This document shows, in pieces, positions 2,628 through 35,164 of a DNA stretch of 64,000 nucleotides. The translations under genes and the position numbers were made by a program. This stretch comes from an uncultured Christensenella sp. Lineage in GTDB: Bacteria > Bacillota > Clostridia > Christensenellales > CAG-917. The notes under the pieces were generated by a model. The model saw only the letters and a list, made by a program, of their open reading frames with translations, was not told the origin of the DNA and searched no databases. Each line of letters starts with the position of its first letter. Positions within the stretch are counted from its first letter, which is position 1. Where the stretch lies: positions 192,985 to 256,984 of the forward strand of contig CAJTNO010000002.1 in NCBI GenBank assembly GCA_910577815.1, read 5' to 3'.

Positions 2628-2661
2628 AAAAACGGCATCCGCCCTTGCGGATGCCGTTTTT
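2628..2661 (-). terminator. rho-independent terminator of the giant gene
   Basis: Perfect 15-bp stem aaaaacggcatccgc / gcggatgccgttttt with a 4-nt loop, 16 nt past the TAA at 2677-2679. Confidence 0.85.
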
Positions 2662-2676
2662 GATACCTAAGGTATT

Positions 2677-5600
2677 TTAGTTTTTAGTGAGCGTTACCAT
2701 CGAGCTGATATAGAACTGAGCAAGCGGTATTGTCTGACCTTTATCCACAGCCGTCTTCGAAGACGTTGCGGCGGTCGTAGCAAGCAGACTTCCGTTTACG
2801 TCAACAACCGTGCTTACCGCGGCGTACAGTCTGTATCTGACTCTCCTTATTCCCTGTGTGGGCAACTCAACCGTATCATTGTTTGATGTAAATATAACGG
2901 GGTATGTCGCCTCTATGGCAGTAGTGCTTCCCACTCTGTAAATGTCCGCCTTGCCGTACCAGGCAATCTTAACCTTGTTGCCGTTGTAGGTATAGCTTGT
3001 GGGCAGAGTATCGCGCCAGCCGCTTGTGCTTACGTCGAGGTCAGTCAGCGTAACGCCGCTTACGGCAAAGGACGACTTGATTGTTACAGGAACGGTTATG
3101 CGCTGCTGCGACCTGATTTGGATAGTTGCGTTATACGAGCTGTCCGGTGTGGTTATTCCGCTCGAGCCGATGTTCCACTTAAGTCCCGCAGGCATAGATA
3201 CGATGACGTGCCTGAACAGCGTTGCGGCGGAATCCGCCTGAGTCGTTGTAGCCGACCAGGTTATATCGCCCGTAGACGCGTTGTAGGTAGGAGTCTGAAC
3301 ACGGAACGTCACATTATAGGAAGACGGCAGCGACAGCGTATTTCCGTTGTTCGGGTCAACCTGGAAGTTGGCGGGAATGGTAAACGTTGTGTTGGTAAAC
3401 GCATTGCCGTCATTGTTGACATACGCATTGAAGGAGACGCCCGAGGTATTGCTCATAATGTGATGCACGTATCTTCTGTCCACCAGGAAGGGGATATCGT
3501 AGGACTGCGTCGAGCCGTCCGCGCCCGTAAGGTTTGCGGTGACGAATATCACGCCGCCCTCGTAGGTGGGACGGAACTTGTTATACGACCAGGACAGCAC
3601 GCCCGCATAGTCAGCGTCGGAGTTTGAAACTCCTCTCTCATAGAAGTTTACCGCCTTGTTGCCCGCAGTATATAGTCTTAATACGTTGGGCATTTCGGGA
3701 AGCTTGTAATCGTAGGCGTTGATATAAGTCTTGCTTGTCGCGTTGGCATATCCCTTAAGACCGTTGAGCTCCGAATTTGTCGCCATACCGGTTATAGTTC
3801 TGTCCGAAACGACTACTTCCACTCTTACGCGCTGTACGCCGAGGCTGTTGGTGTAACCCTCAACGCCGTAATCGAACTCGCCGTTTGCATTGATAACCGC
3901 ATAGGCATAGAACGTACCGCCCGCATACGAGAAGTTTACGCCGCTCATATCCCACTCTATAGGCACTCTGACGGAGGACGTCGCTCCCTCGCCCGTGATA
4001 TAGATATAATTCGGGAAGTAGGTGTACTCGCCAAGCTCCTGATAAGTCAGCTCGATGTACTGATTGCCGACCTTCTTATAGGTTCCGTTTACGTTGTCCT
4101 CGACAAACGTGACGCCGTCAACGAGCTTTGTATATTTGGTACCCTTGTACATATTGCTGCCCGACCTATCAAACGCGTTGCCGTTTGCAAACGGGTCTAT
4201 CACAAAGCGGTTATTGACTTTGTCGTAGAACTTGCCGTGATTTGCGGTAAGACTGCTGCCGAAGCCAAAGGACTGCATCTTGCCGCTCTCGACGCGAGTT
4301 ATTACCTCGAGAGTGGACTTGAAGCCGTTAACCTTGCTGCTTACGTTCGCCTTAACGGGAACGTTTCCGCCTCTGTAGCCGAAGGACGCGCCGGAGGTAT
4401 CCCAATCTGCGGACAGACTCTGAGTGGTCACGTAAACGAAGATGTAGAGGTCGTTGCCGTTTACATCCTTATACGTATGCTCGTCGGAGTCGTAGGCGAC
4501 TGCGCCGGTATATCTGAAGTAAGCTCTGTTAGTCCTGTTGTAGCTGTAGAACTTGCCGAAGCTAACGTCGCCCTCGCGGAAGGTTCCGCCGTACACGGTG
4601 TACATAGCGTGACGCTTAGTCCAGTTGGCGTCGTAGATTGTGGTTTCGCCAAAGGTTCTGCCCTCGTTCCACCAATTTTCCGCGCTTATGAACTGACCGC
4701 CTACGTAATAGGTGATTTCGTTTGCGTAGTTGTTCTTGTTGAACAGGTTCTGCGCGCCGTTCTCCTCGCCGTAAGGCGCGAAGCTGTACTTGTAATCGCC
4801 AACCGACATATCCGTATAGGTTGCGTCGGAGTTGTATACCGTAAGCGCGGATGCGCGGATGACAAACTCGATTGTGAACGGCTCCATAATCTCGAAGCTG
4901 TCCTTTCTGCCCGGAGTACCGTTCCATACGTGCGCCGTAACGTTCTTTCTGAGCGTCTTGGCTTCCTCGAGCATATCGAAGGTAGGCACGTTATCGAAGG
5001 TGATGAAATACGTGCTTACGTCGCCGTTGGTGAAGGACAGTCTGATTTGAGTGGGCAGACCCGCCTCGCCTACGTAAGAATACTTGTTGTAGAACACAAT
5101 CTGAGTGGGCAAGCCCGTGGAGTTGCTCTTGACGATATCGAGGTATCTTCCGTCGTTGCGCTCGCCGAAGGAGTCTACGCCGACGAGAGTTCTCGTAGTC
5201 GTGGAGAAGCGTTTTTCTACGTACAGCTCCTCAACCGCCTTGGTGAGCACAAGCTCGGACGATTCGATATTTCTGTCAAGCACCGTAACGGGCAGGTTGA
5301 AGCGCTGCTCGACGCGGCGGTATACGGTCCTGTCGCACACGAATTCGTCGTTGCCAGTGAGCGCCTTCATATAGCTTACGTATTCCTCGACAGTGACGTA
5401 TTTTGCATTGTCGGCATCGTCGTCGGTGATATCGGCGTAAACGTGAGTGCCGTTCGCGTCCTCTGCGTAAACGATAGCCGTAGCCATAAACTTGAGCGGG
5501 TCGCCTGCGGTCGGGTCTTTCTTTTTGAGCTTCTCAACCATTTCGTTGAGCTTAGACCAATCGAAGTACGCCGCAAAGGTGTTTTCCGTCATACCGTAGT

Positions 5601-21600: not shown

Positions 21601-24600
21601 ATCGTAGACATAGGTGCCTTCGTTATCCTGAATATAATTCAGATAATAGCCCTTTAAGTTGCCGTCCTTATCCGCCTTTACGGTCGCATATCTGCGGACA
21701 TATCTTTCGTCGTCCTTAAATTTGACGTTTCCTTTATCGTCGGGAGTCAGCTCGCCGTCGTTTATTGCGCGGAACATTCCGCCCAGCTTGACGTAATTGC
21801 CCGTCTTGGACTTATCAAATACGTAGTATATGCCGCCCTGTTCGAGCTTTTCGGTCTTTACGCGTGCATACGCGTCCTTCATAACCGCCTTGGGAGCGTA
21901 GAAATCAACGCCGTCGGCAGGGGTATACTTGATGGAGTAGCGCTGTTCCGTCGTATTTTCGGGAGCCTCTACGTAATTTCCGGTATTCTTATCGAATATA
22001 TATCCGCCGTTCTTATCGGCAACGTACTCGAAATAGCAGGGCTTTGCGTCCTTCATAACGAGGTTGCTTGCGACAGCATATCTGTCAACGCCGCCGATAG
22101 CCTTCTCCTCTTCCTTGATAAGACGGAATTCGCCGTTGACCTTGATGTAATCTCCGTCAGCCGCCTTTGTAAAGTAGTAGTAATTTCTGCCCTCTACTAT
22201 ATTCTCGACGTCAACCTTTTCGTACACGTCGGAATCCCTGTAGAAGCCGTTTATAATCGGCAGCAGATTTTCGATGTAGAGGTCGAGATTGATAAAGTCG
22301 TATCTGTCGTTCATAGACAGCACGCCTTCAAACGTATCGATGCTCATAAAGTCGAACTCAACGTCCAGACCGAGCATAATGTCAAACATAAAGCTGACGT
22401 TATTACCGTCGCTGCCCGCCGCCTGCTTATTGGCAAGCGCGGCAATCATTTCGAGAGTGAGCATCTCGCGTCCGCCTATATTGTTGGTCGGGCGCAGGAA
22501 CAGACCGGACCGCTCGTCGAGTACGGTAAGGTCGGAGGTCGGGTCGAAGTTAAACAGACTCTTAAGCAGCTCGTTAATCATATCGGGCTTGAAGTAAATG
22601 CCGAGGTAGTCGAGCTTGTTGGAGGAATTATCGCCGGGGAACCAGGGAGTGCCCTTTACGAGTATGCTCTTAACCATAATGTTGAGCACCTCGCCGAGCT
22701 TAGCGAGCAATTCGCTGTTATCGTCGGCTGTAGGCAGAGCCTCCTGCTTGCCGCCCTCGGTATCGTTTGCGCCGAACTTATCGAGCAAATCGAGCAAGCC
22801 TACGCTTAGCTTGGGACCGCCGACCGCTGAAGCGTCGATATACAAATCGCCTTCCACAAGATAGATATTGAGCTTGCGCTGACTGTTTGCACCGTCCTCG
22901 TATGTGAAATCTATGCTTACCGCAAGCTGCAAAGCATTTAGGATAGTTTGAGTATCGAATTTGATATTGTCAAAGCTGAAATCAGGCGAATCGACCTCGC
23001 TGAGCTTAAAGCCGAGAGTCTCGGTATTAAGACGGATTTGCGCGTCGATAAGCACGCCGTCTCTCATTGCGTCGTTAAGCAGAAGGTTAAGCCCTACGTG
23101 CTTGAGAAGCTCTCCGAGCGTAATGGAACCGTTTTCTCCTTTAAAGTGGATGATGGGAAGTCCGTAGGACAGTATACTGTCGAGAGCCTCCATATTGAGG
23201 ATGAGGTCAAGCGTTTCGTCAAACGCGAAGCCGTCGCGCACGTAAATGCCGCGCGGGTCCTGAATAAATCTGCCGTCCGACTTGTTGAGCGAATATCTGT
23301 CCTTAGCGGAATATGTCGCAAGACGGTTGGGGTCGTCTATGCGGATATACGTCGCGCTTGTCTTGTAGTCTAAAAGCAGGCTCACGTCAACCGCGAGAAT
23401 TCCCGCCTCGGGACGCTTGTTGAAATGGTCGCGCGCCACGTACTGCGGCAAACCGGTATGGTCCGCGTTGTCGGGATTGAATTCCACAAACTCGTGGGTT
23501 ACGGGGTCAAGCACGTACAGAACGTCGGTTTCGGACGGATTTTCCGCAAGAATGTAATCCTTCTTTGCAATAGCTTCCTTAAGCTCGTTTGCAACGTGCT
23601 TATAGGTTTCGCCGTCCTTGCCCGTTTCGATATGGAATGAGCCGAGCGTAAGTCCCAGCGAGAGAAGCTTGCTGTCGATGTCTATGGAAAGCTCGAGCTC
23701 GGGCGATACGCTGATGCTCGCATTCACGGACAAGCCGAGGTCAAGCGAGGATATAATCTCGTTGATATCCACGTCGTTATTCGCGTCCGAGCCGGCGGCG
23801 ATAGCCGCAATAAGTCCGAGCAGAACGTTTTGCGTAACAAGCAGACCGACCTTGCCGTCGGCAATGTCAAGCAGAATACGCATCTGCTCCTCGATGCTTG
23901 CAGAATCGGTATCGGCAGTAGCGACAGCCTCGTCGTCGCCGATATGTATCTTTCCTACCAGCTCGGAAATGAGCTTGGTAATGATATTTGCAATTCCTGT
24001 ATTTTCAATATATACAGCTTCCTTGCCGAGTCCGCCGAAATCGATATAAACGGTATTTCCGTCAATATAGATTGCCAGAATATTGGAGTGGTCTATCTCG
24101 TTTGCAAGTCTTAAAACAATCTTTGTTGACGCGGGGTCGGTAAGCGAAATATTTGCGCCTACTGTAAGCACGGGCTTATAGTGAACGGTATCCTTAAAGT
24201 CGATGCCGAGCTTAAGTCCGAGCTGCGGGAAAAGCACGTCGAGGTAATCCTCTATACGGATAGGCGCGTCCTGCTCCTTGATTTTCACGTCAAGCGCGAG
24301 CGACAGGTGCAGCGTAAGGTTGTCGAGGCTGTCGAGCCCCGCATACTTGCCGCTGTCGAAATTCTCCGCGCCGCCGGGAAGCACGCTGTCGTCGGTGCCG
24401 AGCCCGATGCGAATATCGGAGAGCGTCAATCCCATATACAGCGGGTCTACCTGCACCTTGAGCGCAAGCTCGTAGAACCAGTAGAACGCGAAATAGCTCT
24501 CGGTGCTGTTAAGCTTGATGAAATCGTCGGGAGCGATATTCTTGCCCGTAAGCAGATTTACGATAGTAGTTACAAGCGCTTCCGCAAAGTTGACCTTAAT

Positions 24601-27600
24601 TTCGGTATCGTTTACGGTAGCTCTCTTAATAAGATTATTGATATTGCCGAGAAGCACGCTCAAAATTCCCTTTGAGGCTTCTTCCTCGGTAGTATCGCCC
24701 TCGGCGGGAGTATTCTCCGCCCCGTCGTCGGGAGCGGTATTATTTTCACCCTCGGAGGGCTTATTTCCGCCTTGAATTGATTTGATAAGCGACGCGACGT
24801 CGAGATTTGCAAGCGCAAGGTGGAAGTCGTTTTTGATATCGAGATACACCGTGCTTACAGGCACGCCGAACTGCTCGCCCGTGTACAGAAGGTGTACGCC
24901 GAGCAGAGTATGCTTGGTTATGCTGGCCTGGTCGTTGAAATCAACGTCGTCGATTGCTACGTTATAAATTTCGATACCTATATCCGAGTGGGACAGTATA
25001 TAGTCGAAGTCAAACAGACTTGCGGGAATATACAGCTCGTCGTCTACGAAATTGCCTACGGTTTGGGGAGTAAGTATAACCTTTACGTAGTTTTCACCCG
25101 TCTTGAGATAGGCAACGCCCTTATTGGTCTTTTTATCGATAAGCTGATTATAATCCTTAGGAGCCTTTACAAGCGAAATCCCGTCGGGCAAATACTGCTT
25201 GATAAACAGCGTTCCGTCGTAACCCTTTATGCCGTCCTCGTCAAGCTGAATGTAGTTGGTGCCTTCGAGCTTATAAATTTCTCCGTATTTATACTTATTC
25301 TGAGCAATTTCATCCTTACTGATGGGGATGAACACCGTATTTTCTATAAAATCGATAAAGGATTCGGGGTTAAGACGGAGATTAAGCGAAATTCTGAAGC
25401 CGAGATTTGCAACGACCTCCTCGTCGATGTTATAGGAAAGCAGCAGCGAATGCAGGAAGGAATTGAGCGCGGGATTTTCGCCGTCCTCGTAGAACTGAGC
25501 AATCCACTTGCCGAGCGTCCAATCCGAGCTGCCCTGATTTGCGCCGAGGTCGATAGTACCCTTAAGCTCGAGGAAAACGGAGGGAATCTCCATATCGCCG
25601 TTGCCGTTGAACAGCGGAACTTCGATATAACCGTCCTTATCGTCCTTAAGATAGGTAGCCAAATCCTTTTTATTTTCGCCCTCGCCCACGGTAATGCCGT
25701 TGAGCATATTACCGCCTGCGATGATATTGATATCCGCGGCATAAAGCTTCGCGCCTATCAGGGTTTCTTCGTTAGCGTCGTTTATCTCGAAGTTGAGCGA
25801 AATTTGCTCGCCGCTTCTGCTTGCGAGCGTATCCCAGACAACGTCAATCCACGCCGTAACGTCGGTAAGGTCAAAGCCGACAAGCTCGTAGAGAGCCTCG
25901 ACAATGCCCTGCATAATTCTGATTTGCAGCTTTTCCGAGGTGAGAGAAGCCACCACGGACAGGGCAAGCTTTTTCTTTGTAAGCGCCTCCGCCGCGCTGT
26001 CGCCCTCCGCAACCGTCAAAGCCTCCTTGAGGGAGCCGTCGGGATTTATATTTATAGTACTGTCCTTAGCAATAATCTTAAGGAGGATATCAAATATATC
26101 CATCGGCACGCTGAACTTATTGATGCCGAAGTTACTGCCGTCCACGTACAGACGTTTACCCGTATAATACAAGCCGAGAAGCACCTTTTCGGGTTCGCTG
26201 AATTTCTTACCGGTAAGCTCGATAAGCAGCTCGGAGCGACGGTTTTTGGTGTCTACGTTCTCGTCGCCGAGCAGATAGCTCATAACCGACGCAAGGTCAA
26301 GACGTCCGCTCATCTTAAGCTTATACTCAAACGTACCCTTTTGGTCGAAGCCGACCGAAATAGTATCCGAGAAGGCGGGCATAAACTTATCCGCCTCGTC
26401 GTCGAAATAATACAGCAATCCCTTATATCCGGAGGGAACGGGATACTGCTCTATGGATTTATAGGTAATGCCGTCGCCGTCAAGCCAGTGAGTGCCTTTT
26501 CTGCCGAAATCGATGGTAGTGGTGCCCTGCTCGACGCTGAGATTTAATCCGAAAACGCCGTCGAACGACACAAACGGATTTGCAAACAAATCAACGAAAT
26601 CGTCCTTGGAATACTGAGTTTCCAAATCGAGATAATTGGTATTGCTCTCGCCGAGACCGGCTTCGAAGCCGTTAAGACCGATTTCGAAATTGACGTGGTC
26701 GCCTATGCTCATATAGATGCCGAGCTTAAGCTCGGACAGATTGAGACCGTCCACAAGCTCAATCTTGATACCGCCCTCTACGCCCGCGTCGTTTACTATG
26801 ATATCGATGCCGTCGATATCGAGACCGTCGATAAGCGCCTGAAGCAGATTGCTTACGAATGCGATTTCAATGGAATTTTTACCGAGGTTAATACCCTGTA
26901 TCATTCCGCCGATAAGCGCAATAATTCTGTCTGTGGACGTAGCCTGGGTAATATCCTCGTCGGCTGTGCCGTCGGCGGTAGCAAGAGCCTCGTCGTCGGC
27001 AGACAGAGCGTCCATCTCCACGCCCATCATAGACAGACGCTGAAGGTCAATCATAATCTTATCCACGCCTATGCAGAGCATCTGAGCGTTGATATACAGC
27101 TTGCCTTCCTGCAGATATATTGCGAGAACCTCGTTGTTATAGTCTATATTACCGCTCGCGTCCTTGGGCAGTAGCTTGATTTTGGCGGTGGATTTAAGCA
27201 GAGCCGCCTCGTTAAAGCCGCTTGTGAGGTCGATATCTGCCTGAATATCGGCAACAAGACCGCCTCTTATAGAGCCGAGCTTAAAGAGTATATCAAGCAA
27301 GACGTCAAAGGTCGTATCTCCGAGCGCCAAATCCTTAAGATTTACCTGAAGCTGGGCAAGCTCGCCGCTGAGCGCCTCGACGTTGATATCGAGACCTGTC
27401 TGGAGATTTACGTGCAGGATTTCCGCATTGAGAGCGCCGTCCTTGGTAATTGGCAAATAATGCTCGGAGTAAATATTTTCAAACAAATCGGCAAAGCCGC
27501 TCGGGTCGGAGATAGTGCCGAACTTGAGCTTAACGCCCGCGCCGAGCTTGACAAGCGGATTTTGCTCGCTCTTGCCGAGGTCAACCGCTATGGACAGCGA

Positions 27601-29583
27601 CTTATCCTTGCCGAAGCCGAGGTCCTTATAGGTGAGGGTCGCGTTTGTGACAGGCACCTTGCCGCCCTCGAGATCGCCCACGAAAATCAGACCGAAGATA
27701 TAATCGAGGATGTTCTGCGCGATATCCAGATGTATGGTGTTGATATTGAAGATATTGCCGTCCATACCTACGGTAATATTATCGACGATAGCCATAATCA
27801 AGCCCATAGTATCGCCGATTTCGTTGGAGTCGTCCTCCGCCGCGACCATACCCGTGTGCTGCTTGATTATAGCTCCGTTTGCCGCGAGCTTATTGTACTG
27901 CTCCTCGGTGTTGGTGTTGCCGTTTACTGCTTTGATAATGGTATCGAACAGCTTATCCATCAAGCCGTCGAGAAGCTCGTTGACGTTGATATCCTCAACC
28001 TTGAGCTTGGTATTCTTATTGCCGAGCACGCCGCTTGCGTCGATATAAACCGCCTCGTCCCTGCCGGTGTAATAGACGCCGAGGCGCGTAGCGCCCTCGG
28101 AGCCTCTCAGCTCAAGCGCGATACGCGTCTTGGAAGCGTCCTTGGTATTTATTTCCGCGCGGATTTTGACGATAATCGAGTTTTCGGTCTTGTCAAAATT
28201 GAGGTCCATAGCGAAAAGCGGCAGGAGCGCCTTATACGTATCCTCGCCGAGGTTGGTTTTTAAAATATTGGTGAAAAGCGTACCGAAGGAATCCATAACG
28301 TTTGAAATGGAAACGGTCTGCTTTGAAGTGTCGATGCTAAGAGTTACGTCGCCCTCGAAGGTAAGTATGGAATACTTATTCGTGGACTGCGCAATATGGT
28401 CATAGAAGCTGATGTTCTGTTTTTTATCGTAAATTCTGTTTTTGAGTATGCCGACTACGTCGAGCGTAGGAGCGCCGACAAACTTAGCGTCGATATAGCC
28501 GAGCTTGATGCCGACGCTGCTTTGGAAATCGCCGTATCTGTCCTTAACCGCCTCCGACGCGTTGGAGTTGAAGTTTACGTCTATAGACGTATCCACACCG
28601 TCAAGCACACCGTCCTGAATGTCCGCCTGAATGTAGATTGCCATACCGGTAAGCGCGCCGAGCTTACCGAGGTCGAGACCGAGAACCTTATTGACAAGAC
28701 CGATAATGTCCTCGCTGATTAAACCCTGAAGTAAAGGAAGAAGACTTGCGACGAAAGAGAGGTCGCAAGGTATAAGCAGGGTTTGGCTGCCGTTTCCGTT
28801 GTCCTTAATGGAGCTGAACGAACCGCTGAAAAGCAAGGTAACAATCAAATCCTCAACGGTCATATCGAGAATACCGAGGTCGGCGTTTATGATGCTGTCT
28901 ATAAGGTCGCCGATGTTATAGCCGAGAAGCTCGTTAAAGAGGAGGTCGGTGATATTGAGCTGCTTAAACACGCCGTGAAGCTTTTTGGCAAAATTGGCTA
29001 TATCGAGGTTGTCCGTCCAGACTACGTGTACGGATTCGCCCGTCTCGCCCGCCGCGTTTTTAATTCCGCGTACGTCCGCAACAAGCTTGCCCTCGTAAAA
29101 ATAGAAGCCGGCAAGCAGCTCGCCGCCGTCGTTTTTGACAAGATTGTTTATAGCGTCGTTATCCTGAGCGTCCTTAATCTCGGAGGCTCCGAACTGTCTG
29201 AGCTCTACAAGGAACTGGTCCTGCACCTGCGCTTTAGTCGACTGAGGCGCAAGGTTCATAGCCACCGCCACACGCATAACAAAGACGTTTTCGCTGCCGT
29301 CCTTGGCGTAACCCAGAATAAACGAAGTATCCACGTTTATGTATCTGCTGTCGCTTTCCTGCGACACGGCGGCAAACGCGGCGTTCTTAAGCATATTCCA
29401 GGCCAATCTCGAATCTATGGGAGTACCGCCGTTAAGGTCGGGGTTGTCCGGACCGGGCGTCGGTATCGGAGTAGGCTCCGGATTCGGGTTGGCAGTGCCA
29501 GTCGAATTGCACGCGACAAATACCGAGGTCAGGACAACCAACAGTATCAGCAACAGCACGACTGAAATTTTTCTCTTTCTCAT
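2677..29583 (-). CDS. giant (8,968 aa) predicted surface lipoprotein of unknown function: 13 divergent beta-rich modules plus a C-terminal Ig-like array
   Basis: Uninterrupted 26.9-kb frame. The ATG at 29583 is preceded by GGAGGAAGATT. The signal peptide MRKRKISVVLLLILLVVLTSVFVA|C carries a lipobox. The ORF-track start at 29637 lies upstream of the predicted transcription start. All long antisense ORFs are codon-aligned shadows. Confidence 0.9.
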   Translation of the reverse strand: MRKRKISVVLLLILLVVLTSVFVACNSTGTANPNPEPTPIPTPGPDNPDLNGGTPIDSRLAWNMLKNAAFAAVSQESDSRYINVDTSFILGYAKDGSENVFVMRVAVAMNLAPQSTKAQVQDQFLVELRQFGASEIKDAQDNDAINNLVKNDGGELLAGFYFYEGKLVADVRGIKNAAGETGESVHVVWTDNLDIANFAKKLHGVFKQLNITDLLFNELLGYNIGDLIDSIINADLGILDMTVEDLIVTLLFSGSFSSIKDNGNGSQTLLIPCDLSFVASLLPLLQGLISEDIIGLVNKVLGLDLGKLGALTGMAIYIQADIQDGVLDGVDTSIDVNFNSNASEAVKDRYGDFQSSVGIKLGYIDAKFVGAPTLDVVGILKNRIYDKKQNISFYDHIAQSTNKYSILTFEGDVTLSIDTSKQTVSISNVMDSFGTLFTNILKTNLGEDTYKALLPLFAMDLNFDKTENSIIVKIRAEINTKDASKTRIALELRGSEGATRLGVYYTGRDEAVYIDASGVLGNKNTKLKVEDINVNELLDGLMDKLFDTIIKAVNGNTNTEEQYNKLAANGAIIKQHTGMVAAEDDSNEIGDTMGLIMAIVDNITVGMDGNIFNINTIHLDIAQNILDYIFGLIFVGDLEGGKVPVTNATLTYKDLGFGKDKSLSIAVDLGKSEQNPLVKLGAGVKLKFGTISDPSGFADLFENIYSEHYLPITKDGALNAEILHVNLQTGLDINVEALSGELAQLQVNLKDLALGDTTFDVLLDILFKLGSIRGGLVADIQADIDLTSGFNEAALLKSTAKIKLLPKDASGNIDYNNEVLAIYLQEGKLYINAQMLCIGVDKIMIDLQRLSMMGVEMDALSADDEALATADGTADEDITQATSTDRIIALIGGMIQGINLGKNSIEIAFVSNLLQALIDGLDIDGIDIIVNDAGVEGGIKIELVDGLNLSELKLGIYMSIGDHVNFEIGLNGFEAGLGESNTNYLDLETQYSKDDFVDLFANPFVSFDGVFGLNLSVEQGTTTIDFGRKGTHWLDGDGITYKSIEQYPVPSGYKGLLYYFDDEADKFMPAFSDTISVGFDQKGTFEYKLKMSGRLDLASVMSYLLGDENVDTKNRRSELLIELTGKKFSEPEKVLLGLYYTGKRLYVDGSNFGINKFSVPMDIFDILLKIIAKDSTININPDGSLKEALTVAEGDSAAEALTKKKLALSVVASLTSEKLQIRIMQGIVEALYELVGFDLTDVTAWIDVVWDTLASRSGEQISLNFEINDANEETLIGAKLYAADINIIAGGNMLNGITVGEGENKKDLATYLKDDKDGYIEVPLFNGNGDMEIPSVFLELKGTIDLGANQGSSDWTLGKWIAQFYEDGENPALNSFLHSLLLSYNIDEEVVANLGFRISLNLRLNPESFIDFIENTVFIPISKDEIAQNKYKYGEIYKLEGTNYIQLDEDGIKGYDGTLFIKQYLPDGISLVKAPKDYNQLIDKKTNKGVAYLKTGENYVKVILTPQTVGNFVDDELYIPASLFDFDYILSHSDIGIEIYNVAIDDVDFNDQASITKHTLLGVHLLYTGEQFGVPVSTVYLDIKNDFHLALANLDVASLIKSIQGGNKPSEGENNTAPDDGAENTPAEGDTTEEEASKGILSVLLGNINNLIKRATVNDTEIKVNFAEALVTTIVNLLTGKNIAPDDFIKLNSTESYFAFYWFYELALKVQVDPLYMGLTLSDIRIGLGTDDSVLPGGAENFDSGKYAGLDSLDNLTLHLSLALDVKIKEQDAPIRIEDYLDVLFPQLGLKLGIDFKDTVHYKPVLTVGANISLTDPASTKIVLRLANEIDHSNILAIYIDGNTVYIDFGGLGKEAVYIENTGIANIITKLISELVGKIHIGDDEAVATADTDSASIEEQMRILLDIADGKVGLLVTQNVLLGLIAAIAAGSDANNDVDINEIISSLDLGLSVNASISVSPELELSIDIDSKLLSLGLTLGSFHIETGKDGETYKHVANELKEAIAKKDYILAENPSETDVLYVLDPVTHEFVEFNPDNADHTGLPQYVARDHFNKRPEAGILAVDVSLLLDYKTSATYIRIDDPNRLATYSAKDRYSLNKSDGRFIQDPRGIYVRDGFAFDETLDLILNMEALDSILSYGLPIIHFKGENGSITLGELLKHVGLNLLLNDAMRDGVLIDAQIRLNTETLGFKLSEVDSPDFSFDNIKFDTQTILNALQLAVSIDFTYEDGANSQRKLNIYLVEGDLYIDASAVGGPKLSVGLLDLLDKFGANDTEGGKQEALPTADDNSELLAKLGEVLNIMVKSILVKGTPWFPGDNSSNKLDYLGIYFKPDMINELLKSLFNFDPTSDLTVLDERSGLFLRPTNNIGGREMLTLEMIAALANKQAAGSDGNNVSFMFDIMLGLDVEFDFMSIDTFEGVLSMNDRYDFINLDLYIENLLPIINGFYRDSDVYEKVDVENIVEGRNYYYFTKAADGDYIKVNGEFRLIKEEEKAIGGVDRYAVASNLVMKDAKPCYFEYVADKNGGYIFDKNTGNYVEAPENTTEQRYSIKYTPADGVDFYAPKAVMKDAYARVKTEKLEQGGIYYVFDKSKTGNYVKLGGMFRAINDGELTPDDKGNVKFKDDERYVRRYATVKADKDGNLKGYYLNYIQDNEGTYVYDFATGVYVQADASDDGIRFRREEELILKPKAKEDEADVPQAVENIGFYAIQDRPQYYDQNIYLAVGGLVYFNSNGIETYNAGGLVANLLGDMIIELQAQSEFTGGIGINIALNVDLAKLDLLGLAGGKSVGQFILDSDIDEMELAIEFVKVGDDGHFERYRSGAFKVLGGLYLSGGSLYIDATEIVNNAESYARIDNFVSKGRELIDQIGGIVDGITKPNQADEALTATEYDSESQDLEKLSRDAIIALAYSDTAFQIQFTRSLLAFIVATLMPELGSIEEVFDILELSVGVELGEVQYKRVSEIKDPAEKDKWDTEWNDERYNYYTDPSPVHAVELEDYYVAMVNGVSKYYPSYTSLYVKNENGTYDKVTDGYNPDAGITYYVDEAGLKLEVLRVVKAQKADKNYYVVAEGSGATVSLKSYDLYEKVGDDYYKSDMFVYDEAQNDVRYIHYNGSYRKVTALRMRKYGYVKETGGEFYREIINYSALEDFMVAVDLTAGCLSMGLKLGRLDVDLGSGIDLLPDYIRDEVGHTVKLDNGDYEEYSRELYETLTETEKNTVKQVAVNPFTDTIVTIGFSIDLDFGVTEGAIDFGQIVAGILGNIAGVRIEMPTTSKGYSSAHFRLDFSLMLDMGDLSNSELAIELFAVTESGYDAKWAGIYYFGRGVYLDLSDTFNIPKMSMSDIGATDLINSIFDLLGLGKPFVAGSVNNGVSSGEALTAGSANDAVLGADGTTGAVGDADFTNRDLALAILFNKDLLTIALGNKMFHTILELIDTSSLGFNLKDLFYDEINTNLQVKLDTSESIDLEVLIALGLVGGRYNKVADATEQGDSYDEQQIIRDIQSLTNQTKYFAFRPAVEGGQRGYYVKGDDGTYVRVAKPDDIVNGTTYVKYRVLYNEDTKKLYLRPMLDGDGNGKENMGKDEFALNAGEEIYSFTPGASANNSYVGDGGKYDVDLSLKIAICNVNAEFTNSRKYTLSGEELKDYTAFGDMDRITLSETVDLTTSFKTGEDNDIDLSAVISAFIPSLTADNLIKIISQADDGGDVNRKIQAVVTLDLQMMALVNYARTQLVQYSGMDAFEGEMTLFDTIELLQKLIENADALGENASKILTDIISFFDLKLVIQTKGGNEKEFHDIIGIYMMGGTFVIMTDEEKNDKESEKYVDPSERFDHYFENKDGTYYLDKDGKYKPINDTPLAEDDKRYSFDANYCYPNENGGYKRVNGGIAIDLSYFNVPSIYIDSSELDTLVDALLGGLVGGGNGEAMSVAATSADDSEDEDNKITFPLITDDELLGYIRTFVYGFSVTSRYIQLLVQPDFINSILALLLDEDTTIKFDEEKFVNKPALTIYSDMTKHAYVNVKELVERIPDSSDTSVTEEERVKIRKEVVEIMTASHYRFNVTEYTGAGASKRGTYFKAEDGSFELIAVMSASQKSDYDKLVEKGEKSYYDVNSAPVYIRIIDTDASGNVINSFVLYSTASDIQIRRAEKNALALQHYGIDVPVLYILSDTSLDSSDIPTEDGKFYTTVGAEDLYCVEKLDSRYPFITLDLYLWNYQISLGVNFPEFGVEKFNYVNVKELKDKILAGTATEEERNLYEIISQYPDSVRYRDVPQYLYSSEDKESDGTYSWISDYYESGAFSPARYDANPRYYSVKEPVKDEDTGKEKFETKYYPITADTLMIMNAQGTFKPAVTDGVIPNYLEEIANGTKEYYVQTGTSYAKVQRQYMYRRDMYDAGKKVLIAPEDVDKYDDYYVRAMRQGFITRPDFENDEKYENYKYKNYVSIGELFYLSLDLRAHLYVEAGRMFFPYGEYKQLYSQINNLLGENELSDADMLAFIKDNGLGYKIQRGEYVQVKDGAEIESLMAGGHLYVWANSSLSEDYDGVKEQLGQVLSGIFGNMKAVLQLQEGDSLNIYLSVRINLCFDLTISPFKLNVRDLDIAIDAWLQQRDKLAGGGYVSPEDRQNGNYEGELENGSLAHILGIYYDRNAATGSAGLYVDLSWILGADAKIYVDLSKHSIEDVLAGLLGNNSMDNDEALPVARNDRIDKDVQSPDVTTAYLNIFTNAIAVNVTSGFLRVLLNELMADSSSITDVLPNFRAYVKVGFNPYDLTVGALLFNEDGSRPVIDVGLKFEGLNGTETSSSIAFGPESEFDGGDIFNNANFHLDSKGEYARNYDLGNIIRLYKNSADGVEYYETENGNYKKLDDGSFELISGDYDGTRYDVYNGPSQRYSHDGYSAKEILPEARFAFGSDHDNRYDTGEFKGMLYVKVGDAYKPINEVETKFKSASYRDICNTETFASFRGELYAVDPEFDYIKVDKRSLAGYTGKGKLQYRLARTGELTNPLAVNVDGAAYMPIDEDGDGYTSAVEADKYAGEKAYILSGDFKGYTKAMTIDLSKLSNVSIADMLGDFKSVEFGVTLDLTLKVSNIINWAYQMTKFIDDSTITEYLYFLIASLEYIENEGNKTETNSKVSLNASINVYLPTQNIVAILTNNDPDKTINILDVLDGIKAYVEITYQTGLHKNPATSRLWFEINGGKLDAYLDMAEIGELIGFGNFFSYGKLDGFDLAPLLGSASATSVAEAIAAADKALDDDIVNTGMLPEGIWGTLNVLLGRLLLSSDFITVGLNESLLADLLKILINSDSEILNSVAEFLPKLYTTNDSDTSGITINFSGNSPSVDINFGFKVGEDYYITVQRYNEMFGKNGKYCIDGVTYSDWSGTRFAKNEDGTYSVTTSTDNANTYVYISSDNYVLKAYAYPTWEGETFDYVPATGEFVKNAAGNGLYIAMGDFSLSASLHDLYVRINKDFSVSKEEKFGEDTDGDGVKDTIDESKFVEIHSMKAYLNMSIDVSLYGSGAAGQDNTIDMSEVLDLLLELLAPTANIGNSDFKVNITNELGRDDGAFLKLDLNAVIDFENWEAALSLKLQKYAAKSNSYSTLFGIYLLDDSIYVDLSGLLGETAKVKLEGVNVNSLIKNSLGKLIGAVDNGGLANDEAGTAAKDEIDIIESNMMDWEYIMLLFRPHEVLLQLNADLINAVYKKIMQIRGEKVENLLPDLGDWLLHIGTDPTTDHTKISLNMRFSDALYMTLDLDMPTITKDVENGKRVISGIIGDQSKYVSLGSIDLEAIVNGEEVDLINALTLPTVGAHMGITVQVTSRGLARGDAGYDDSFAAWLGDELLGSLLSGVDAFGNYKKFGDSGNMTLADREFYQGKMYKYDSANKRYVEETNWRNATHYFQSALTSFTFGSANESINLVIDLKANINLGSVILYGLAGILYSDISIDVSMGYPLNKKLISIYYLGSSRLKYNQTTGSYEVGSDGDIMSDAIYIDATSLGLGKIKFQGVAGILGGSYGYDGDEANTVADASTEADGETNADGTPDASTGSEATPIALNINIENDKLEFSFDTGLFNAILALLNVKLGFNLPNIQNATLSLMFGDNGISGMRLESILDSVGSSIAIAVNPIELTIGTAAFDSAATAQEVKTGYAGLTMSNTAGMMSLVQNILDNLDLNASIEIQNKVMNVVGGNASGYGDVGYFQVLNQRSKITLTGQKRFDNTHPDDTSAGGKGYKLFLALLPENNSRYTKDMDTLKIIVGGNNVFVTGIPVKLTGLAEAAQGAISDFLKFLDLGSMAPDMFPLKLATGTDGDDGSYKYPSASDRYDTTDNWTDNGDGTSSYSYTPNLEGLINKLELNLSSRHGYQPYYSGMSAIQRDAGLISIKIEFGKQAFNELMIMIDCILLNLMSTMNSHPSSGGVQNYFINPTSVGINNSNGDAGTDPSGKYLSIKTATEVLQELDTNYVKKNATTEAKVKFLEPYMRALPYALIKWILRDVAYGAAKDLPVVGANSIWDDGTSLFGWKLAGIIGPNIQDLSRIIAGILPLPFAVGDINPSANIYIDLNPSPSEYGLNASSDMSPGIRAIELMVNGRKNGAGTSMQYLKAPNTNMGQYNITGHTANIEEAWDFFMLRITPYADGNKVESNRLIGFDESAEAEIIDKNITPPTSITITDPGRRSGTLVGGSNNGKAIEMRDSTFSNPALFPQMADVTFAKGNPYHSYYQTSVYNDARGTQLVWDASTVDYTAAEPGKTKLAGYVYGYALNTVMYAIPVYISDAAAVTRVRSYTRAEGDANTYVQSDITLNINEANNKFNSQLPDLALITFKDTSIGSRVFGTYRTETVDKKEQMAQAVIGTSEKLSASSSYYKIKGVQINSDGGLRVLPAYTAGLVNVKSNRHYTTVTSNWTSGGYPYSIDSEGYVKYYHAESDTYYYVLDTRYLPTGKNFPAGTISWNTDDFSYDWQGGTGDNSSTINVRFTYQWGFAAEATGSINVNAANYKVQSVSGIVRNGEETKLTVTANSDGSYASRLTLDPMKFNADMITSGSKFSLTNYIKSFTKLNGKWTSNSKFNDYTVKWDLSELEKAMEAITDENGQVDYYKGIKVTVTAYVGGDVFKVLNANGGKYGFVGSDYSTDSKYANSGYIAQAVPVEIVVNSYTLREFNNDVVYDPYNAYRLSGDALYPEGSTIAITVRTVDGTKSDRILTVGTDVKVTAPLIRTGSAGKYTYLDAYNNSVYSIKEGDISYNGYSGSYPLYACFEIGTEYTGIQRVYEQIAINEVKPSQQAVNVAHEDTFNPYWFEGEAYESFDVAFGRVKHTMYPDWTTLKYYTTAACTTLANEQNIYAGGTIFAKVKAYVKEGDKNVALAIAKDKDGNIIYDEDGNIVYEAQDIVLRLNVEKQEISSINFFYDEAIGDIYALSSDRQQDLIDSGEIFDVSKYTGAVYAQTHKIGDLGYGIDPINFATNPDAYFRTSERWGNPFESVAVLVNLVKGTWEGARYFVGENGEPAKDEAGQYISNPDGDHKYDSATGKFVKMTAGEMGTSYIAYVRDWTTTPDSYGIKGGFITLDAHIGNATVSFRVRVPNYEFAGVDESWTGTPSIAFAGGTVGGTGENALTFNYNVRKPWTMPENGTFITKEGKEPLDVRINWVDASSPIRDGVDIKTDGDRKYVERQYYFFDDMTIRYPSEGSFTARIYIDGYGENGTFVEVENRTVYDLFGEFRVPNTATVSVDGEAAPITGVPIRWTDWSNPTSDEIAAGKFTRHFKLLFGDDDNKVYEQEFVINNAFTLEETYGFINNAYGSLRYRLTSDIFHLGLPQKSVLAVGDKRIDVDLNWDVVYGLNGFAEKNVRLTITSEYLSASFDVAVTVDDVSISGLSAGNSFTLDPYGRESSFFASGDLVDVSLLNGGTAKIVANYSLSDIYAGSGIKSDAEFYANISRFFGKTYNVRVNYTYPGMEQPVDGGVISVYVVDRTVFYMGEHEYRSIIIDPFIHSDVSHLANDLHIVTRLDYGMTENTFAAYFDWSKLNEMVEKLKKKDPTAGDPLKFMATAIVYAEDANGTHVYADITDDDADNAKYVTVEEYVSYMKALTGNDEFVCDRTVYRRVEQRFNLPVTVLDRNIESSELVLTKAVEELYVEKRFSTTTRTLVGVDSFGERNDGRYLDIVKSNSTGLPTQIVFYNKYSYVGEAGLPTQIRLSFTNGDVSTYFITFDNVPTFDMLEEAKTLRKNVTAHVWNGTPGRKDSFEIMEPFTIEFVIRASALTVYNSDATYTDMSVGDYKYSFAPYGEENGAQNLFNKNNYANEITYYVGGQFISAENWWNEGRTFGETTIYDANWTKRHAMYTVYGGTFREGDVSFGKFYSYNRTNRAYFRYTGAVAYDSDEHTYKDVNGNDLYIFVYVTTQSLSADWDTSGASFGYRGGNVPVKANVSSKVNGFKSTLEVITRVESGKMQSFGFGSSLTANHGKFYDKVNNRFVIDPFANGNAFDRSGSNMYKGTKYTKLVDGVTFVEDNVNGTYKKVGNQYIELTYQELGEYTYFPNYIYITGEGATSSVRVPIEWDMSGVNFSYAGGTFYAYAVINANGEFDYGVEGYTNSLGVQRVRVEVVVSDRTITGMATNSELNGLKGYANATSKTYINAYDYKLPEMPNVLRLYTAGNKAVNFYERGVSNSDADYAGVLSWSYNKFRPTYEGGVIFVTANLTGADGSTQSYDIPFLVDRRYVHHIMSNTSGVSFNAYVNNDGNAFTNTTFTIPANFQVDPNNGNTLSLPSSYNVTFRVQTPTYNASTGDITWSATTTQADSAATLFRHVIVSMPAGLKWNIGSSGITTPDSSYNATIQIRSQQRITVPVTIKSSFAVSGVTLTDLDVSTSGWRDTLPTSYTYNGNKVKIAWYGKADIYRVGSTTAIEATYPVIFTSNNDTVELPTQGIRRVRYRLYAAVSTVVDVNGSLLATTAATSSKTAVDKGQTIPLAQFYISSMVTLTKN
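11575..28086 (-). repeat. protein-level array of 13 divergent modules sharing the motif [LI]x[IL]EL..(loop)..GIYYxGxxLY[IV]DxSxxLG
   Basis: Motif cores were read by hand at ~28021-28086, 27085-27130, 26131-26184, 24835-24910, 24028-24085, 22822-22878, 21055-21105, 19594-19641, 17884-17940 (+18160-18200), 15613-15678, 13960-14025, 12748-12805 and 11600-11745. Confidence 0.7.
29509..29583 (-). other. type II (lipoprotein) signal peptide and lipobox Cys of the giant protein
   Basis: Basic n-region MRKRK, 17-residue hydrophobic core, then FVAC with the Cys25 codon at 29509-29511. It is followed by a Pro-rich tether NPNPEPTPIPTPGPDNPD. Confidence 0.75.
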
Positions 29584-29639
29584 AATCTTCCTCCGAATCT
29601 TCGCACACGCACGTATGCTAAAGATTACTATACGCACAA

Positions 29640-29668
29640 ATTATACAACTCCCCGCCCGCAATGTCAA
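29640..29668 (-). promoter_or_regulatory. canonical sigma-A promoter of the giant gene
   Basis: Minus strand reads TTGACA (29668-29663), 17-nt spacer ttgcgggcggggagttg, TATAAT (29645-29640). Predicted leader is ~50 nt to the ATG at 29583. Confidence 0.65.
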
Positions 29669-29988: not shown

Positions 29989-30017
29989 TTGACATATCGC
30001 TGTTAAAATAGTATAAT
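29989..30017 (+). promoter_or_regulatory. canonical sigma-A promoter giving a leaderless DUF1624 mRNA
   Basis: TTGACA (29989-29994), 17-nt spacer, TATAAT (30012-30017). The ATG at 30025 is only 7 nt downstream and has no SD. Confidence 0.55.
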
Positions 30018-33567: not shown

Positions 33568-33846
33568 ATTTACGCCTCTTGCACTTAGTATTAAGCAAAA
33601 GCATACCTTTTACGCTCAGCTATAATATAATAATTTAGCATATTTAAACGATAAAAGCAAGCACCTTTAAAGCGTTTGGCTCGCAGCTCGCGCTTAACGC
33701 AGTCCGTCCGCCGACTGTCATAAGCCGATTGATATACCTGCGCTTGCTCTTGTTCAAGCTCAACCGACACGCCGCTCGCGCTCGGTTCATATAAATGATA
33801 ATCGGCTTAAGCTTGCAAAAACGGGGTTTAACCGAGCATTTTGTTG

Positions 33847-33875: not shown

Positions 33876-33902
33876 AGTAAAAATAAATTTTGAGAGGCTT
33901 AT

Positions 33903-35129: not shown

Positions 35130-35164
35130 TCACGCTTTAAAATTATATATATTTTTACTTAAGC

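Follow-up and report, generated by a model that had tools for sequence, protein, structure and literature searches.

What is encoded by the 26.9-kb open frame that takes up 42% of the window (the whole stretch of 64,000 nucleotides from an uncultured Christensenella sp. analysed here), and what could so large a product do for a gut Clostridium? An earlier note on this DNA had described the frame as a single gene for a giant lipoprotein outside known families. Our analysis indicates a genuine gene for nearly a megadalton of conserved, selected protein that lacks any recognisable domain. The features that carry the argument are listed in Table 1.

An intact gene with conserved expression signals

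The giant gene is real, conserved and under purifying selection. Reading and translating the minus-strand frame gave 8,968 codons and one terminal stop, as expected from the uninterrupted frame that the earlier note had claimed. Of 14 reference gut genomes, 12 have an orthologous frame that runs open beyond 4,500 codons; in L001 and L005 the frame is interrupted where the sequence has runs of N. Giants of 6,529–7,924 aa are collinear with the window protein from end to end at 22–28% identity and occupy the same chromosomal locus. Over the N-terminal ~4,500 codons, dN/dS was 0.13–0.20, and a gapless codon comparison with the 97%-identical strain L018 gave a pN/pS of 0.115 over the C-terminal 2,053 codons. 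The intact frame, the collinear distant giants, the low dN/dS overall (0.12–0.20) and the conserved promoter, ribosome-binding site (RBS) and signal peptide together establish that the gene is real. Direct DNA repeats in the gene reach no more than 32–43 nt, at 76% identity or less, and its tandem arrays number just four, all trivial. Because none of these could cause collapse, an assembly collapse, against which the earlier note had cautioned, is unlikely here.

The family is small, with 66 clusters among 1.84 billion proteins, all named only "hypothetical". Homology searches with 1,200-aa pieces returned just a few fragments, since long members are scarce in the word-indexed database. From sequence comparison, it is a vertically inherited Christensenellales family of predicted lipoproteins of 6.5–9 k aa. 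The giant protein diverges faster than the products of its neighbours (36–62% versus 44–89% identity).

The signals for transcription and translation were confirmed where the earlier note had placed them. An equally perfect promoter lies 55–64 nt 5' of the ATG in 11 of 11 close orthologs tested, and the GGAGG RBS is kept in the 11 close orthologs tested as well. The mechanical open reading frame reaches farther 5', to a GTG at 29637. We prefer the ATG at 29583 because GGAGG stands 5 nt upstream of it and its position is shared by the starts of all aligned orthologs. The leader hairpin (AAUCUUU..AAGAUU, about −14 kcal/mol in a single-sequence fold) occurs at the same place in the leader of every ortholog with modest z-scores (−0.2 to −3.1), and RNAalifold found no convincing consensus structure for the leader across orthologs (−1.5 kcal/mol). 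At the other end of the gene, direct reading confirmed the perfect 15-bp stem that had been proposed as a terminator (AAAAACGGCATCCGC-AAGG-GCGGATGCCGTTTTT at 2661..2628), which in effect is a 10-bp G+C-rich stem followed by T5. The consensus terminator scanner did not report this hairpin, probably because the T-run forms part of the 15-bp stem. A consensus promoter ahead of 27 kb of coding sequence would fit a structural product made in large amounts better than an adhesin made only occasionally.

Table 1. Coordinates of the giant gene, its expression signals, the parts of its product and the adjacent genes; positions are those of the window and residues (aa) those of the pre-protein.
Feature	Position	Strand	Basis
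Coding sequence, 8,968 aa and stop codon	2677..29583	-	Intact frame; orthologs open; dN/dS 0.12–0.20
Promoter TTGACA-17-TATAAT, 12/12 consensus match	29640..29668	-	Promoter scan
5' leader, ~50 nt, with hairpin; GGAGG RBS at 29590–29594	29584..29639	-	Sequence, folding
Predicted type II signal peptide, aa 1–24, and lipobox Cys25 (F-V-A-C)	29509..29583	-	Sequence, ortholog conservation
Pro/Thr/Asn-rich tether after Cys25, aa 26–55	29419..29508	-	PVIPTPTP-type stretches at the same place in orthologs
Array of 14 diverged α/β modules, aa 56–6030, 300–950 aa each	11494..29418	-	Profiles, alignments, AF2
Module-terminal unit 1, aa 104–213	28945..29274	-	HMM i-Evalue 2e-8
Module-terminal unit 2, aa 455–561	27901..28221	-	HMM i-Evalue 3e-22
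Module-terminal unit 3, aa 773–873, linker DDEALATAD	26965..27267	-	HMM 5e-12
Module-terminal unit 4, aa 1086–1195, linker KEALTVAE	25999..26328	-	HMM 3e-21
Module-terminal unit 5, aa 1512–1622	24718..25050	-	HMM 4e-5
Module-terminal unit 6, aa 1788–1893, linker DDEAVATAD	23905..24222	-	HMM 5e-20
Module-terminal unit 7, aa 2182–2289, linker KQEALPTAD	22717..23040	-	HMM 9e-15
Module-terminal unit 8, aa 2767–2892, linker ADEALTATE	20908..21285	-	HMM 2e-13
Module-terminal unit 9, aa 3273–3383, linker SGEALTAGS	19435..19767	-	HMM 3e-22
Module-terminal unit 10, aa 3868–3933, linker NGEAMSVAA	17785..17982	-	HMM 1e-7
Module-terminal unit 11, aa 4587–4700, linker NDEALPVAR	15484..15825	-	HMM 9e-12
Module-terminal unit 12, aa ~5190–5295, linker SVAEAIAAAD	13699..14016	-	By eye
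Module-terminal unit 13, aa 5536–5657, linker NDEAGTAAK	12613..12978	-	HMM 2e-15
Module-terminal unit 14, aa 5900–6027, linker GDEANTVAD	11503..11886	-	HMM 7e-7
C-terminal region, aa 6031–8968, β-rich, essentially non-repetitive	2680..11493	-	Composition, indel map
Intrinsic terminator, 15-bp perfect inverted repeat, 4-nt loop	2628..2661	-	Read directly from sequence
HGSNAT_cat (former DUF1624) acyltransferase gene	30025–30924	+	Sequence
DUF1858 gene, 65 aa	2268–2465	-	Sequence
XRE-cupin gene	1611–2159	-	Sequence

An acidic product with a putative lipid anchor

The putative N-terminal lipobox is the only anchor visible in the protein. The signal peptide reads MRKRKISVVLLLILLVVLTSVFVA up to the lipobox Cys and is followed by the Pro-rich stretch NPNPEPTPIPTPGPDNP, in agreement with the type II signal peptide and tether first proposed for this protein. 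Inspected by eye against the PROSITE PS51257-type rule, with the lipobox given as [LVI/F][ASTVI][GAS]-C, the N-terminus shows a positive charge in its n-region, a hydrophobic stretch as h-region and the lipobox Cys within the first ~35 residues. The signal and its Cys are conserved, as ...VAC(N/D) or ...GCG, at all 16 loci and in all full-length giants, and the signal peptide is the sole strongly hydrophobic segment of the protein (the only one with KD19 > 3). Cys25 would accordingly be a candidate for lipidation and the giant protein would be exposed at the surface.

The mature protein (985 kDa, pI 4.5, 15 Cys or 0.17%) is as acidic and nearly Cys-free as had been claimed. Motif, hydropathy and Pfam scans likewise bear out the reported lack of other attachment signals: an LPXTG-like motif ([LS]PX[TSA][GANS]) is absent throughout the protein, the C-terminus (...SSMVTLTKN) is not hydrophobic and forms no hydrophobic segment, and the wall-binding modules SLH, CW_binding_1/2, LysM and SH3b had 0 Pfam/NCBIfam matches over the whole length.

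Fourteen ancient modules and a near-invariant linker motif

The N-terminal two-thirds of the protein is a fixed array of diverged modules. Each is closed by a conserved unit together with a linker motif of acidic character, [E/D]-A-x-[T/A/V]-A-[A/D]-[D/E]. The motif marks all module boundaries of the window protein and recurs in the same way across the family, and its Ala is conserved in 98% of ~290 instances, a level that no position of the unit's folded part reaches. Members at 22–30% identity share the modules one-to-one, in both number and order. Self-BLAST of the window protein found almost no repeats, and the modules are ancient paralogs barely detectable by BLAST. Unit 12 of the window protein scores under the HMM cut-off and was recognised by eye; the orthologous unit was detected in the relative P0044, maps to ~aa 5185 of the window protein and is also aligned in A6. 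Tyr-rich hairpins, which differ from lineage to lineage, interrupt some modules, and one such insert displaces the first half of unit 10.

An AF2 model of aa 440–1240, covering two modules (pLDDT 69.8), shows folded α/β modules joined by acidic linkers with pLDDT <50; a model of aa 1–1200 from five sequences (pLDDT 33.6) was set aside. Each module has a hydrophobic helix at its start as well as β-hairpins whose strands are 14–15 residues long, and the array as a whole would have an extended, beads-on-a-string shape. A fixed one-to-one array, unlike the expandable, homogenised stalks of typical giant adhesins, suggests a separate role for each module. The linker-motif Ala, the most conserved position and yet predicted to be disordered, is not explained by a passive spacer.

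A variable C-terminal region

The C-terminal region is rich in Ser, Thr, Tyr and Asn and low in aliphatic residues, with only one weak internal repeat (aa ~8395–8750). Lineage-specific deletions fall around aa 7100–8100, and the extreme C-terminus is not swapped but conserved among family members. The region has no Pfam or PDB match. Sub-threshold matches to the Ig-like Big_4 domain (PF07532) were seen in the C-terminal region of three relatives (16.2–20.6 bits versus a cut-off of 22.1). The window protein gave no Big_4 match even at E<=1, and a Big_4-like signature regex was not enriched in it (3 matches versus 2.5 in shuffled sequence). This region may have a binding role.

Searches for known domains and folds

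The giant protein belongs to no family that we could recognise, and the unplaced stretch is larger than first claimed: in addition to the N-terminal ~6,650 aa for which the earlier note could name no relative, the C-terminal ~2,900 aa are, as judged from these searches, equally outside any family. Full-length searches of Pfam and NCBIfam returned 0 matches at E<=0.1, which covers FIVAR/GA, cadherin/RTX, RHS/YD, NRPS/PKS, peptidase and toxin families, all of which had been excluded earlier by eye. Searching both protein halves against PDB sequences with phmmer gave 0 matches at E<=1; of the family profiles A3, A4 and A6, the first two gave 0 PDB matches and the third only InvG noise at E~1. A profile built from the 14 paralogous units had no match beyond the family in PDB sequences or in a database of 5.8 billion proteins. 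No Pfam match recurred below threshold in the N-terminal region of 19 relatives, and no confident profile match places this region in a characterised adhesin family.

Structure comparison led to the same result for the modelled part. With the two-module model (pLDDT 70), Foldseek found no PDB match at E<=1e-3; query TM-scores were at most 0.11 against PDB and BFVD, and the best target-normalised TM-score was 0.29 (PDB). The top matches, all insignificant, were hot-dog dehydratases/thioesterases, LolB, TbpB, porins, ApoB100 and an ORP domain, and TamB/YhdP were absent among the top 50 from PDB. Pfam detected no AsmA, DUF490 or TamB domain in the window protein or the 19 relatives. The module can therefore be regarded as novel, as the earlier note had proposed, by sequence and profile throughout and by structure for the modelled part.

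Proposed function and alternatives

Our leading interpretation, whose chance of being correct we rate at about even, is a surface fibre or coat protein held by a lipid and binding ligands at its distal end. The strong conserved promoter would drive a single 27-kb transcript, and the pre-protein would be exported by Sec, diacylglyceryl-modified at Cys25 and cut by signal peptidase II. The mature acidic chain of ~985 kDa would then be tethered by its N-terminal lipid to the outer face of the cytoplasmic membrane of a host whose envelope we take to be monoderm from taxonomy (gut Clostridium, order Christensenellales). From there, the Pro-rich tether and the 14 distinct α/β modules with their acidic flexible linkers could take the chain across the wall and past it, in the form of a long beads-on-a-string fibre or a coat element. 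The β-rich C-terminal third, which varies between lineages, would lie farthest from the cell and might contact glycans, other cells or host material. The low pI, the scarcity of Cys, fast divergence, Tyr-rich inserts and C-terminal indels form a signature of surface proteins, and the folded AF2 modules with low-pLDDT linkers, together with the 14 module-terminal units, support the fibre shape. The weak, sub-threshold Big_4 signals in three relatives would suit a binding C-terminal region. The interpretation is weakened because no adhesin, lectin, Ig-like or wall-binding domain is significant in the window protein, and the fixed one-to-one array, the conserved Ala in a disordered linker and the consensus promoter also count against an adhesin with a passive stalk.

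A more ambitious reading is tentative and, in our judgement, carries clearly less than an even chance. It holds that the protein may be a new, Christensenellales-specific envelope component, a lipid-anchored chain of ~1 MDa with exactly 14 non-interchangeable modules of a new α/β fold and a linker motif for processing or docking. Such a chain would be no adhesin stalk; acting as a polyprotein or molecular ruler, it could supply a complete, ordered set of subunits for a surface coat or scaffold. If true, the polyprotein or ruler reading would describe a previously unseen kind of Gram-positive envelope component.

The main competing explanation, which we hold to be unlikely, is a polyprotein from which a surface coat is made once a dedicated protease has cut the exported chain at the linker motif. 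About 15 different pieces of 30–100 kDa would assemble non-covalently on the surface, with only the first held by a lipid. The near-invariant motif Ala within acidic linkers of pLDDT <50, the recurrence of the motif at every module boundary and the individual conservation of every module, as expected of separate functional proteins, all agree with cutting. S-layer genes typically have a strong promoter and a leader hairpin and encode an acidic, Cys-poor product, and the giant gene resembles them in each of these respects. Surface precursors are also known to be processed, as Clostridioides difficile SlpA is by Cwp84, and Mycoplasma adhesins are cut at short motifs in disordered regions. However, no protease gene adjoins the giant gene (two Rce1-like proteases are encoded ~18 kb away), the motif matches no cleavage site that we could name and could equally be a helix cap or docking element, and there is no SLH or CWB2 domain to hold the released pieces.

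An envelope scaffold or carrier of fixed length is considerably less probable. Here each module would be a half-barrel, a curved antiparallel β-sheet around its hydrophobic helix, and the chain would bind lipids, lipid-linked wall precursors or similar cargo or pass them between the membrane and the outer wall. The opening helix, the long hairpin strands, the fixed and ancient module number and the lipid-related folds among the best Foldseek matches (hot-dog, LolB, TbpB, porin, ApoB100 and ORP) are compatible with it, as are a transmembrane HGSNAT-type acyltransferase gene next door and GH20 and PIG-L genes in distant members. Those structural matches are insignificant, however; Pfam found no AsmA, TamB, LolA or Lpt family, a presumed monoderm has no second membrane to bridge, and the neighbourhood is inherited synteny in which the intervening genes vary.

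A giant polymorphic toxin or contact-dependent effector, in which a long stalk would deliver a C-terminal toxin, is very improbable. It would suit the large size and the variable C-terminal region, but Pfam and NCBIfam showed no RHS/YD, filamentous haemagglutinin, PT-type, LXG, WXG or toxin domain, family members keep the same extreme C-terminus instead of exchanging it, and the genes directly 3' of the giant gene are the conserved, housekeeping-type DUF1858 and XRE-cupin genes rather than an immunity-like small gene. An assembly artefact, repeat-collapse product or decaying pseudogene has a negligible chance: the assembly of L018 (2.6x coverage) has one GGA-to-TGA change at aa 7726 and in a Logan contig of the relative L002 the frame breaks off after 1,370 aa, but independent assemblies of many species keep the frame, several complete orthologs of 6.5–7.9 k aa exist, and the repeat, selection and signal evidence given above stands against it.

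Comparison with known giant and surface proteins

Staphylococcus aureus Ebh (1.1 MDa) is similar in being a megadalton, acidic, exported, many-module product of a single gene, and in its membrane anchor and projection through the wall, which for the giant lipoprotein are presumed. Ebh consists of near-identical FIVAR/GA repeats with a C-terminal transmembrane anchor, whereas the giant lipoprotein has no FIVAR/GA by Pfam, only an N-terminal lipobox, and 14 ancient paralogous modules conserved one-to-one. The Gram-negative RTX/BIg adhesins LapA, SiiE and MpIBP share the layout of N-terminal retention, a long extender and a distal C-terminal ligand-binding region. In contrast to them, the giant lipoprotein has a Sec lipoprotein signal and a presumed monoderm host, no BIg, RTX or T1SS signal by Pfam/NCBIfam, and modules predicted to be α/β units of 300–950 aa instead of Ig domains of ~100 aa.

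Mollicute lipoprotein adhesins and C. difficile SlpA are comparable in their lipid anchor or coat role, acidic and Cys-poor composition and strong expression signals, and may also be alike in being cut at short motifs in disordered linkers. The giant lipoprotein has no sequence similarity to them, is 10–50 times larger and lacks SLH/CWB2. The repeating β-groove or AsmA-like bridge proteins TamB/YhdP and the LolA/LolB-type half-barrels are likewise comparable: the chain is made of ancient β-rich units, fixed in number, in which helices alternate with long hairpins, and the weak, insignificant Foldseek neighbours of the giant lipoprotein are open β-sheet lipid-binding folds. It differs from these proteins in having no significant sequence or structure match, in occurring in organisms with no known outer membrane and in carrying a putative lipid rather than an N-terminal transmembrane segment.

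Very large predicted extracellular proteins have been reported from giant genes of mammalian gut Clostridia, built of the known repeats RCC1, Listeria-Bacteroides, YG, dockerin and LRR (West-Roberts et al. 2023, bioRxiv 10.1101/2023.11.21.568195). Unlike those, the giant lipoprotein has no recognised domain and no repeat array at the DNA or BLAST level. For annotation, this means that giant genes are not always repeat arrays, and that a fixed, ancient 14-module architecture can be missed by domain databases.

Christensenellales is a health-associated gut order whose cell surface is essentially unstudied, although microbiome studies of humans, mice, pigs and poultry repeatedly encounter the order, including the genus CAG-475. 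The giant lipoprotein probably does much to determine how these cells face the host, phages and other microbes. It adds a new module family, and processing, docking or modification are possible roles of its near-invariant linker motif.

Genomic neighbourhood

The genes around the giant gene are conserved with it by position. The acyltransferase, DUF1858 and XRE-cupin genes that had been assigned to its flanks were confirmed, and they remain nearby even in distant members, with other genes intercalated; GH20 and PIG-L genes are also close to the giant gene there. We considered an operon or system formed by the giant gene with the acyltransferase, DUF1858 and XRE-cupin genes and do not claim one, as the whole region is syntenic. 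The co-occurrence that the earlier note had suggested testing is therefore better read as conserved synteny across the whole clade, and linkage to these neighbours is not evidence of a shared function. The acyltransferase gene has its own 12/12 promoter, which ends 7 nt before the ATG, so that the leaderless transcript named in the earlier note is plausible from the spacing.

A single intact gene with an old chromosomal address

The giant gene is real, as several independent lines of evidence indicate. Translation of the minus-strand frame gives 8,968 residues with one stop, the terminal one, in agreement with the earlier note, which had described a single uninterrupted gene. The mechanical ORF start is a GTG at 29637, upstream of the ATG at 29583; this ATG is the start common to all orthologs, and a GGAGG at 29590-29594 precedes it. 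The perfect promoter and the ribosome-binding site are kept in all close orthologs tested (11/11). The terminator hairpin, AAAAACGGCATCCGC-AAGG-GCGGATGCCGTTTTT, was read directly from the sequence and is absent from the consensus scanner's list, probably because its T-run forms part of the stem. The G+C content of the gene is that of its flanks. Its longest direct DNA repeats, of 32-43 nt, reach at most 76% identity, and its four tandem arrays are trivial; therefore, repeat collapse, an artefact named in the earlier note, is excluded. Very long ORFs (up to 1,285 aa) oppose the gene on the other strand and are regarded as a side effect of its codon composition rather than as genes.

Scanning of GTDB species representatives revealed 14 orthologous loci with 36-62% identity to the giant protein, all from uncultured gut Clostridia ('Christensenella sp.' MAGs, Firmicutes bacterium CAG:475, and Hadza, UMGS, HGM and mouse-catalogue MAGs). 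CAG-475 is a GTDB genus in the order Christensenellales (PMC8863827). Twelve of these loci keep an open frame over more than 4,500 codons, as far as the compared DNA reaches, and the breaks in the remaining two coincide with runs of N. Between species pairs with unsaturated dS, dN/dS is 0.13-0.20 over ~4,500 N-terminal codons. The C-terminal third (aa 6031-8968) is under purifying selection as well, and the gapless alignment to a 97%-identical strain (locus L018), covering the C-terminal 2,053 codons, gives pN/pS = 0.115. In that strain, TGA stands at L018 2433-2435 (window aa 7726) where the window has GGA, the only such change, on a contig of 2.6x coverage; the cause is a sequencing error or else a truncation peculiar to that strain. 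When 1.84 billion representative proteins were searched exhaustively with HMMER and an N-terminal profile, only 66 clusters were returned, nine of which are giants of 6,529-7,924 aa. A lipoprotein signal opens every giant, and all of them align collinearly with the window protein from first residue to last at 22-28% identity, and the sole name on any family member is 'hypothetical protein [Clostridia bacterium]'.

The five giant loci examined occupy the same chromosomal place as the window gene. Where the contig is long enough, an HGSNAT-type acyltransferase lies upstream and DUF1858 and XRE-cupin genes downstream; apgM, a GH127-like gene and bPH_2 are also upstream in most. The shared locus and flanking genes therefore mark the giant gene as old, vertically inherited and fast-diverging: among close species it is 36-62% identical, compared with 44-89% for its neighbours. 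The upstream block is retained at 44-89% identity in most close relatives (L001, L003-L016), far better conserved than the giant gene. Extra genes (GH20, PIG-L, Mem_trans, Band_7) are intercalated at the giant loci. A GH20 hexosaminidase, a ~280-aa hypothetical protein and a PIG-L-family deacetylase lie between acyltransferase and giant gene in three distant-clade loci, and Mem_trans and Band_7/zinc-ribbon genes lie 3' of the giant gene in 5/5 distant loci. These genes lend the locus an aminosugar flavour of uncertain relevance.

Features of the giant gene and its surroundings (window coordinates unless a locus is named)
Feature	Coordinates	Strand	Remark
Giant gene	2677..29583	-	8,968 residues
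Promoter TTGACA-17-TATAAT	29668..29640	-	12/12 consensus match
Terminator hairpin	2661..2628	-	3' of stop codon
Antisense ORFs	4237-8094, 10942-12810, 24820-26547, 17545-19170	+	opposite giant gene
Tyr-rich insertion, aa 2445-2733	~21385-22250		
Tyr-rich insertion, aa 2977-3137	~20170-20655		
Tyr-rich insertion, aa 4206-4463	~16195-16970		
Tyr-rich insertion, aa 4833-4902	~14875-15090		
Acyltransferase promoter, perfect TTGACA-17-TATAAT	29989-30017	+	ends 7 nt before ATG
HGSNAT_cat/DUF1624 acyltransferase	30025-30924	+	divergent from giant gene
Condensation-domain protein, α/β-hydrolase esterase, hypothetical, GH127-like, bPH_2 (upstream block)	31618-38513	-	
Collagen triple-helix-repeat protein, 449 aa	39474-40823	+	Pfam Collagen E=1.4e-28; ~10 kb from giant gene
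Rce1-like (CPBP/CAAX-type) intramembrane proteases, two in tandem	47789-48748, 48745-49833	-	4-nt overlap
tRNA, single	63348-63421	+	only Rfam match in window at gathering threshold
GH20/hypothetical/PIG-L block	L022 3622-7104; L023 3825-7493; L024 3825-7577		

A new protein family built from fixed modules

No curated family or solved structure fits any part of the window protein. Pfam-A and NCBIfam gave zero matches at E<=0.1 over both halves, characterised adhesin families included, and PDB sequences were matched neither by phmmer nor by three different profiles. Across 19 N-terminal and 8 C-terminal relatives no curated family recurs, except Big_4 at 16-20.6 bits in three C-terminal relatives, below its 22.1 cut-off. 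The earlier note had placed the N-terminal region in no known family; these searches bear this out and widen the novelty to both halves.

The 14 α/β modules (aa 56-6030) are ancient paralogs of fixed number and order rather than a recently expanded repeat stalk. BLAST of the protein against itself finds nearly no internal repeats, and a degenerate repeated motif is discernible by eye. A family-wide iterated HMM recovers 13 copies of a ~110-residue unit, a 14th copy detected in an ortholog aligns with the others, and profile-profile comparison of ortholog alignments confirms the repeat at 90-97% probability. The units map one-to-one to the same positions in the giants at only 22-30% identity. 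Their consensus, ...SELaIEL...(loop)...vLLGiYY.dG.LYiDlsgl.G.pKvkid.inl.eLl..L..., is followed by a Ser/Gly-rich acidic linker bearing [E/D]-A-x-[T/A/V]-A-[A/D]-[D/E]. The linker Ala is conserved in 98% of ~290 instances, above any residue of the folded part (Tyr at most 87%, Asp 86%). The motif lies at aa 861-887, 1183-1221 and the other 12 module boundaries (e.g. nt 26965-27000), in regions predicted to be disordered; cleavage, docking, modification or helix capping are candidate roles. Tyr-rich 'G-x-Y...G-x-Y' hairpin stretches, partly missing from other lineages, break up several modules; the count of this motif is 63, versus 22.5 ± 5 after shuffling, an enrichment of about 3-fold. These insertions recall YG or choline-binding-type β-hairpin repeats, and no Pfam family fits them. 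In the C-terminal third, Ser, Thr, Tyr and Asn are commoner and aliphatic residues scarcer; this part contains a single weak internal repeat and carries lineage-specific deletions around aa 7100-8100.

Modelling of residues 440-1240 with 33 diverse family members reached pLDDT 69.8 and pTM 0.52; a model from a five-sequence alignment was unusable (pLDDT 33.6). Each modelled module opens with a hydrophobic helix and has ~17 β-strands, some of 14-15 residues, and 3-4 helices; the acidic linkers between modules, where the conserved motif sits, fall below pLDDT 50. Foldseek searches with this whole model gave no PDB match at E<=1e-3 (query TM-scores <=0.11) and nothing meaningful in BFVD. In the weak top matches (hot-dog dehydratases, LolB, TbpB, porins, ApoB100) the β-sheet is open and curved, a likeness that may serve as a lead only.

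A putative lipid-anchored surface chain

The protein starts with MRKRKISVVLLLILLVVLTSVFVA-C, which is built like a lipoprotein signal; a Pro-rich stretch comes after it. The mature protein (985 kDa, pI 4.5, 15 Cys) contains neither an LPXTG-like motif nor any strongly hydrophobic segment besides the signal peptide. Following established lipoprotein biogenesis, it would be exported by Sec, lipidated by Lgt/Lsp at Cys25 and tethered to the membrane on its outer face. From there, a very long acidic string of beads, made up of the Pro-rich tether and the 14 modules with their linkers, would cross the wall and display the variable β-rich end distally. We infer its functional role as that of a surface fibre or coat held by a lipid anchor, with a binding region at the far end, a reading given an even chance. 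Three features, namely modules that are fixed and each conserved on its own, the near-invariant motif within a disordered linker and the consensus promoter driving a 27-kb gene, argue against a simple adhesin stalk. The same features favor the main rival, a polyprotein precursor whose cleavage at the linker motif would release an ordered series of surface subunits; we consider this rival unlikely. A chain of hydrophobic-ligand carrier modules is distinctly improbable, a polymorphic toxin scarcely credible, and the remaining probability falls to something else. An artefact or pseudogene has next to no likelihood beside the open ortholog frames, collinear giants, same locus, low dN/dS and kept promoter and ribosome-binding site, which uphold the earlier note's observation.

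A giant modular surface protein with a lipid anchor is, in type, a variation on a known theme; this protein family is new, and so, as far as the modelled part shows, is its fold. It most plausibly works like anchored surface giants such as Ebh, RTX/BIg adhesins, Mollicute lipoprotein adhesins and S-layer precursors, but it is a member of none, as each defining domain tested is absent. The giant Clostridia genes described before are repeat arrays of known type (bioRxiv 10.1101/2023.11.21.568195), unlike this family.

Elsewhere in the window, the 441-nt intergenic region carries two back-to-back consensus promoters, and the position of the acyltransferase promoter so close to its ATG makes that mRNA probably leaderless. 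The collagen-repeat gene is probably another surface or exosporium-like fibre gene. No protease-like genes other than the Rce1-like pair, ~18 kb from the giant gene, were seen in the annotated part of the window.
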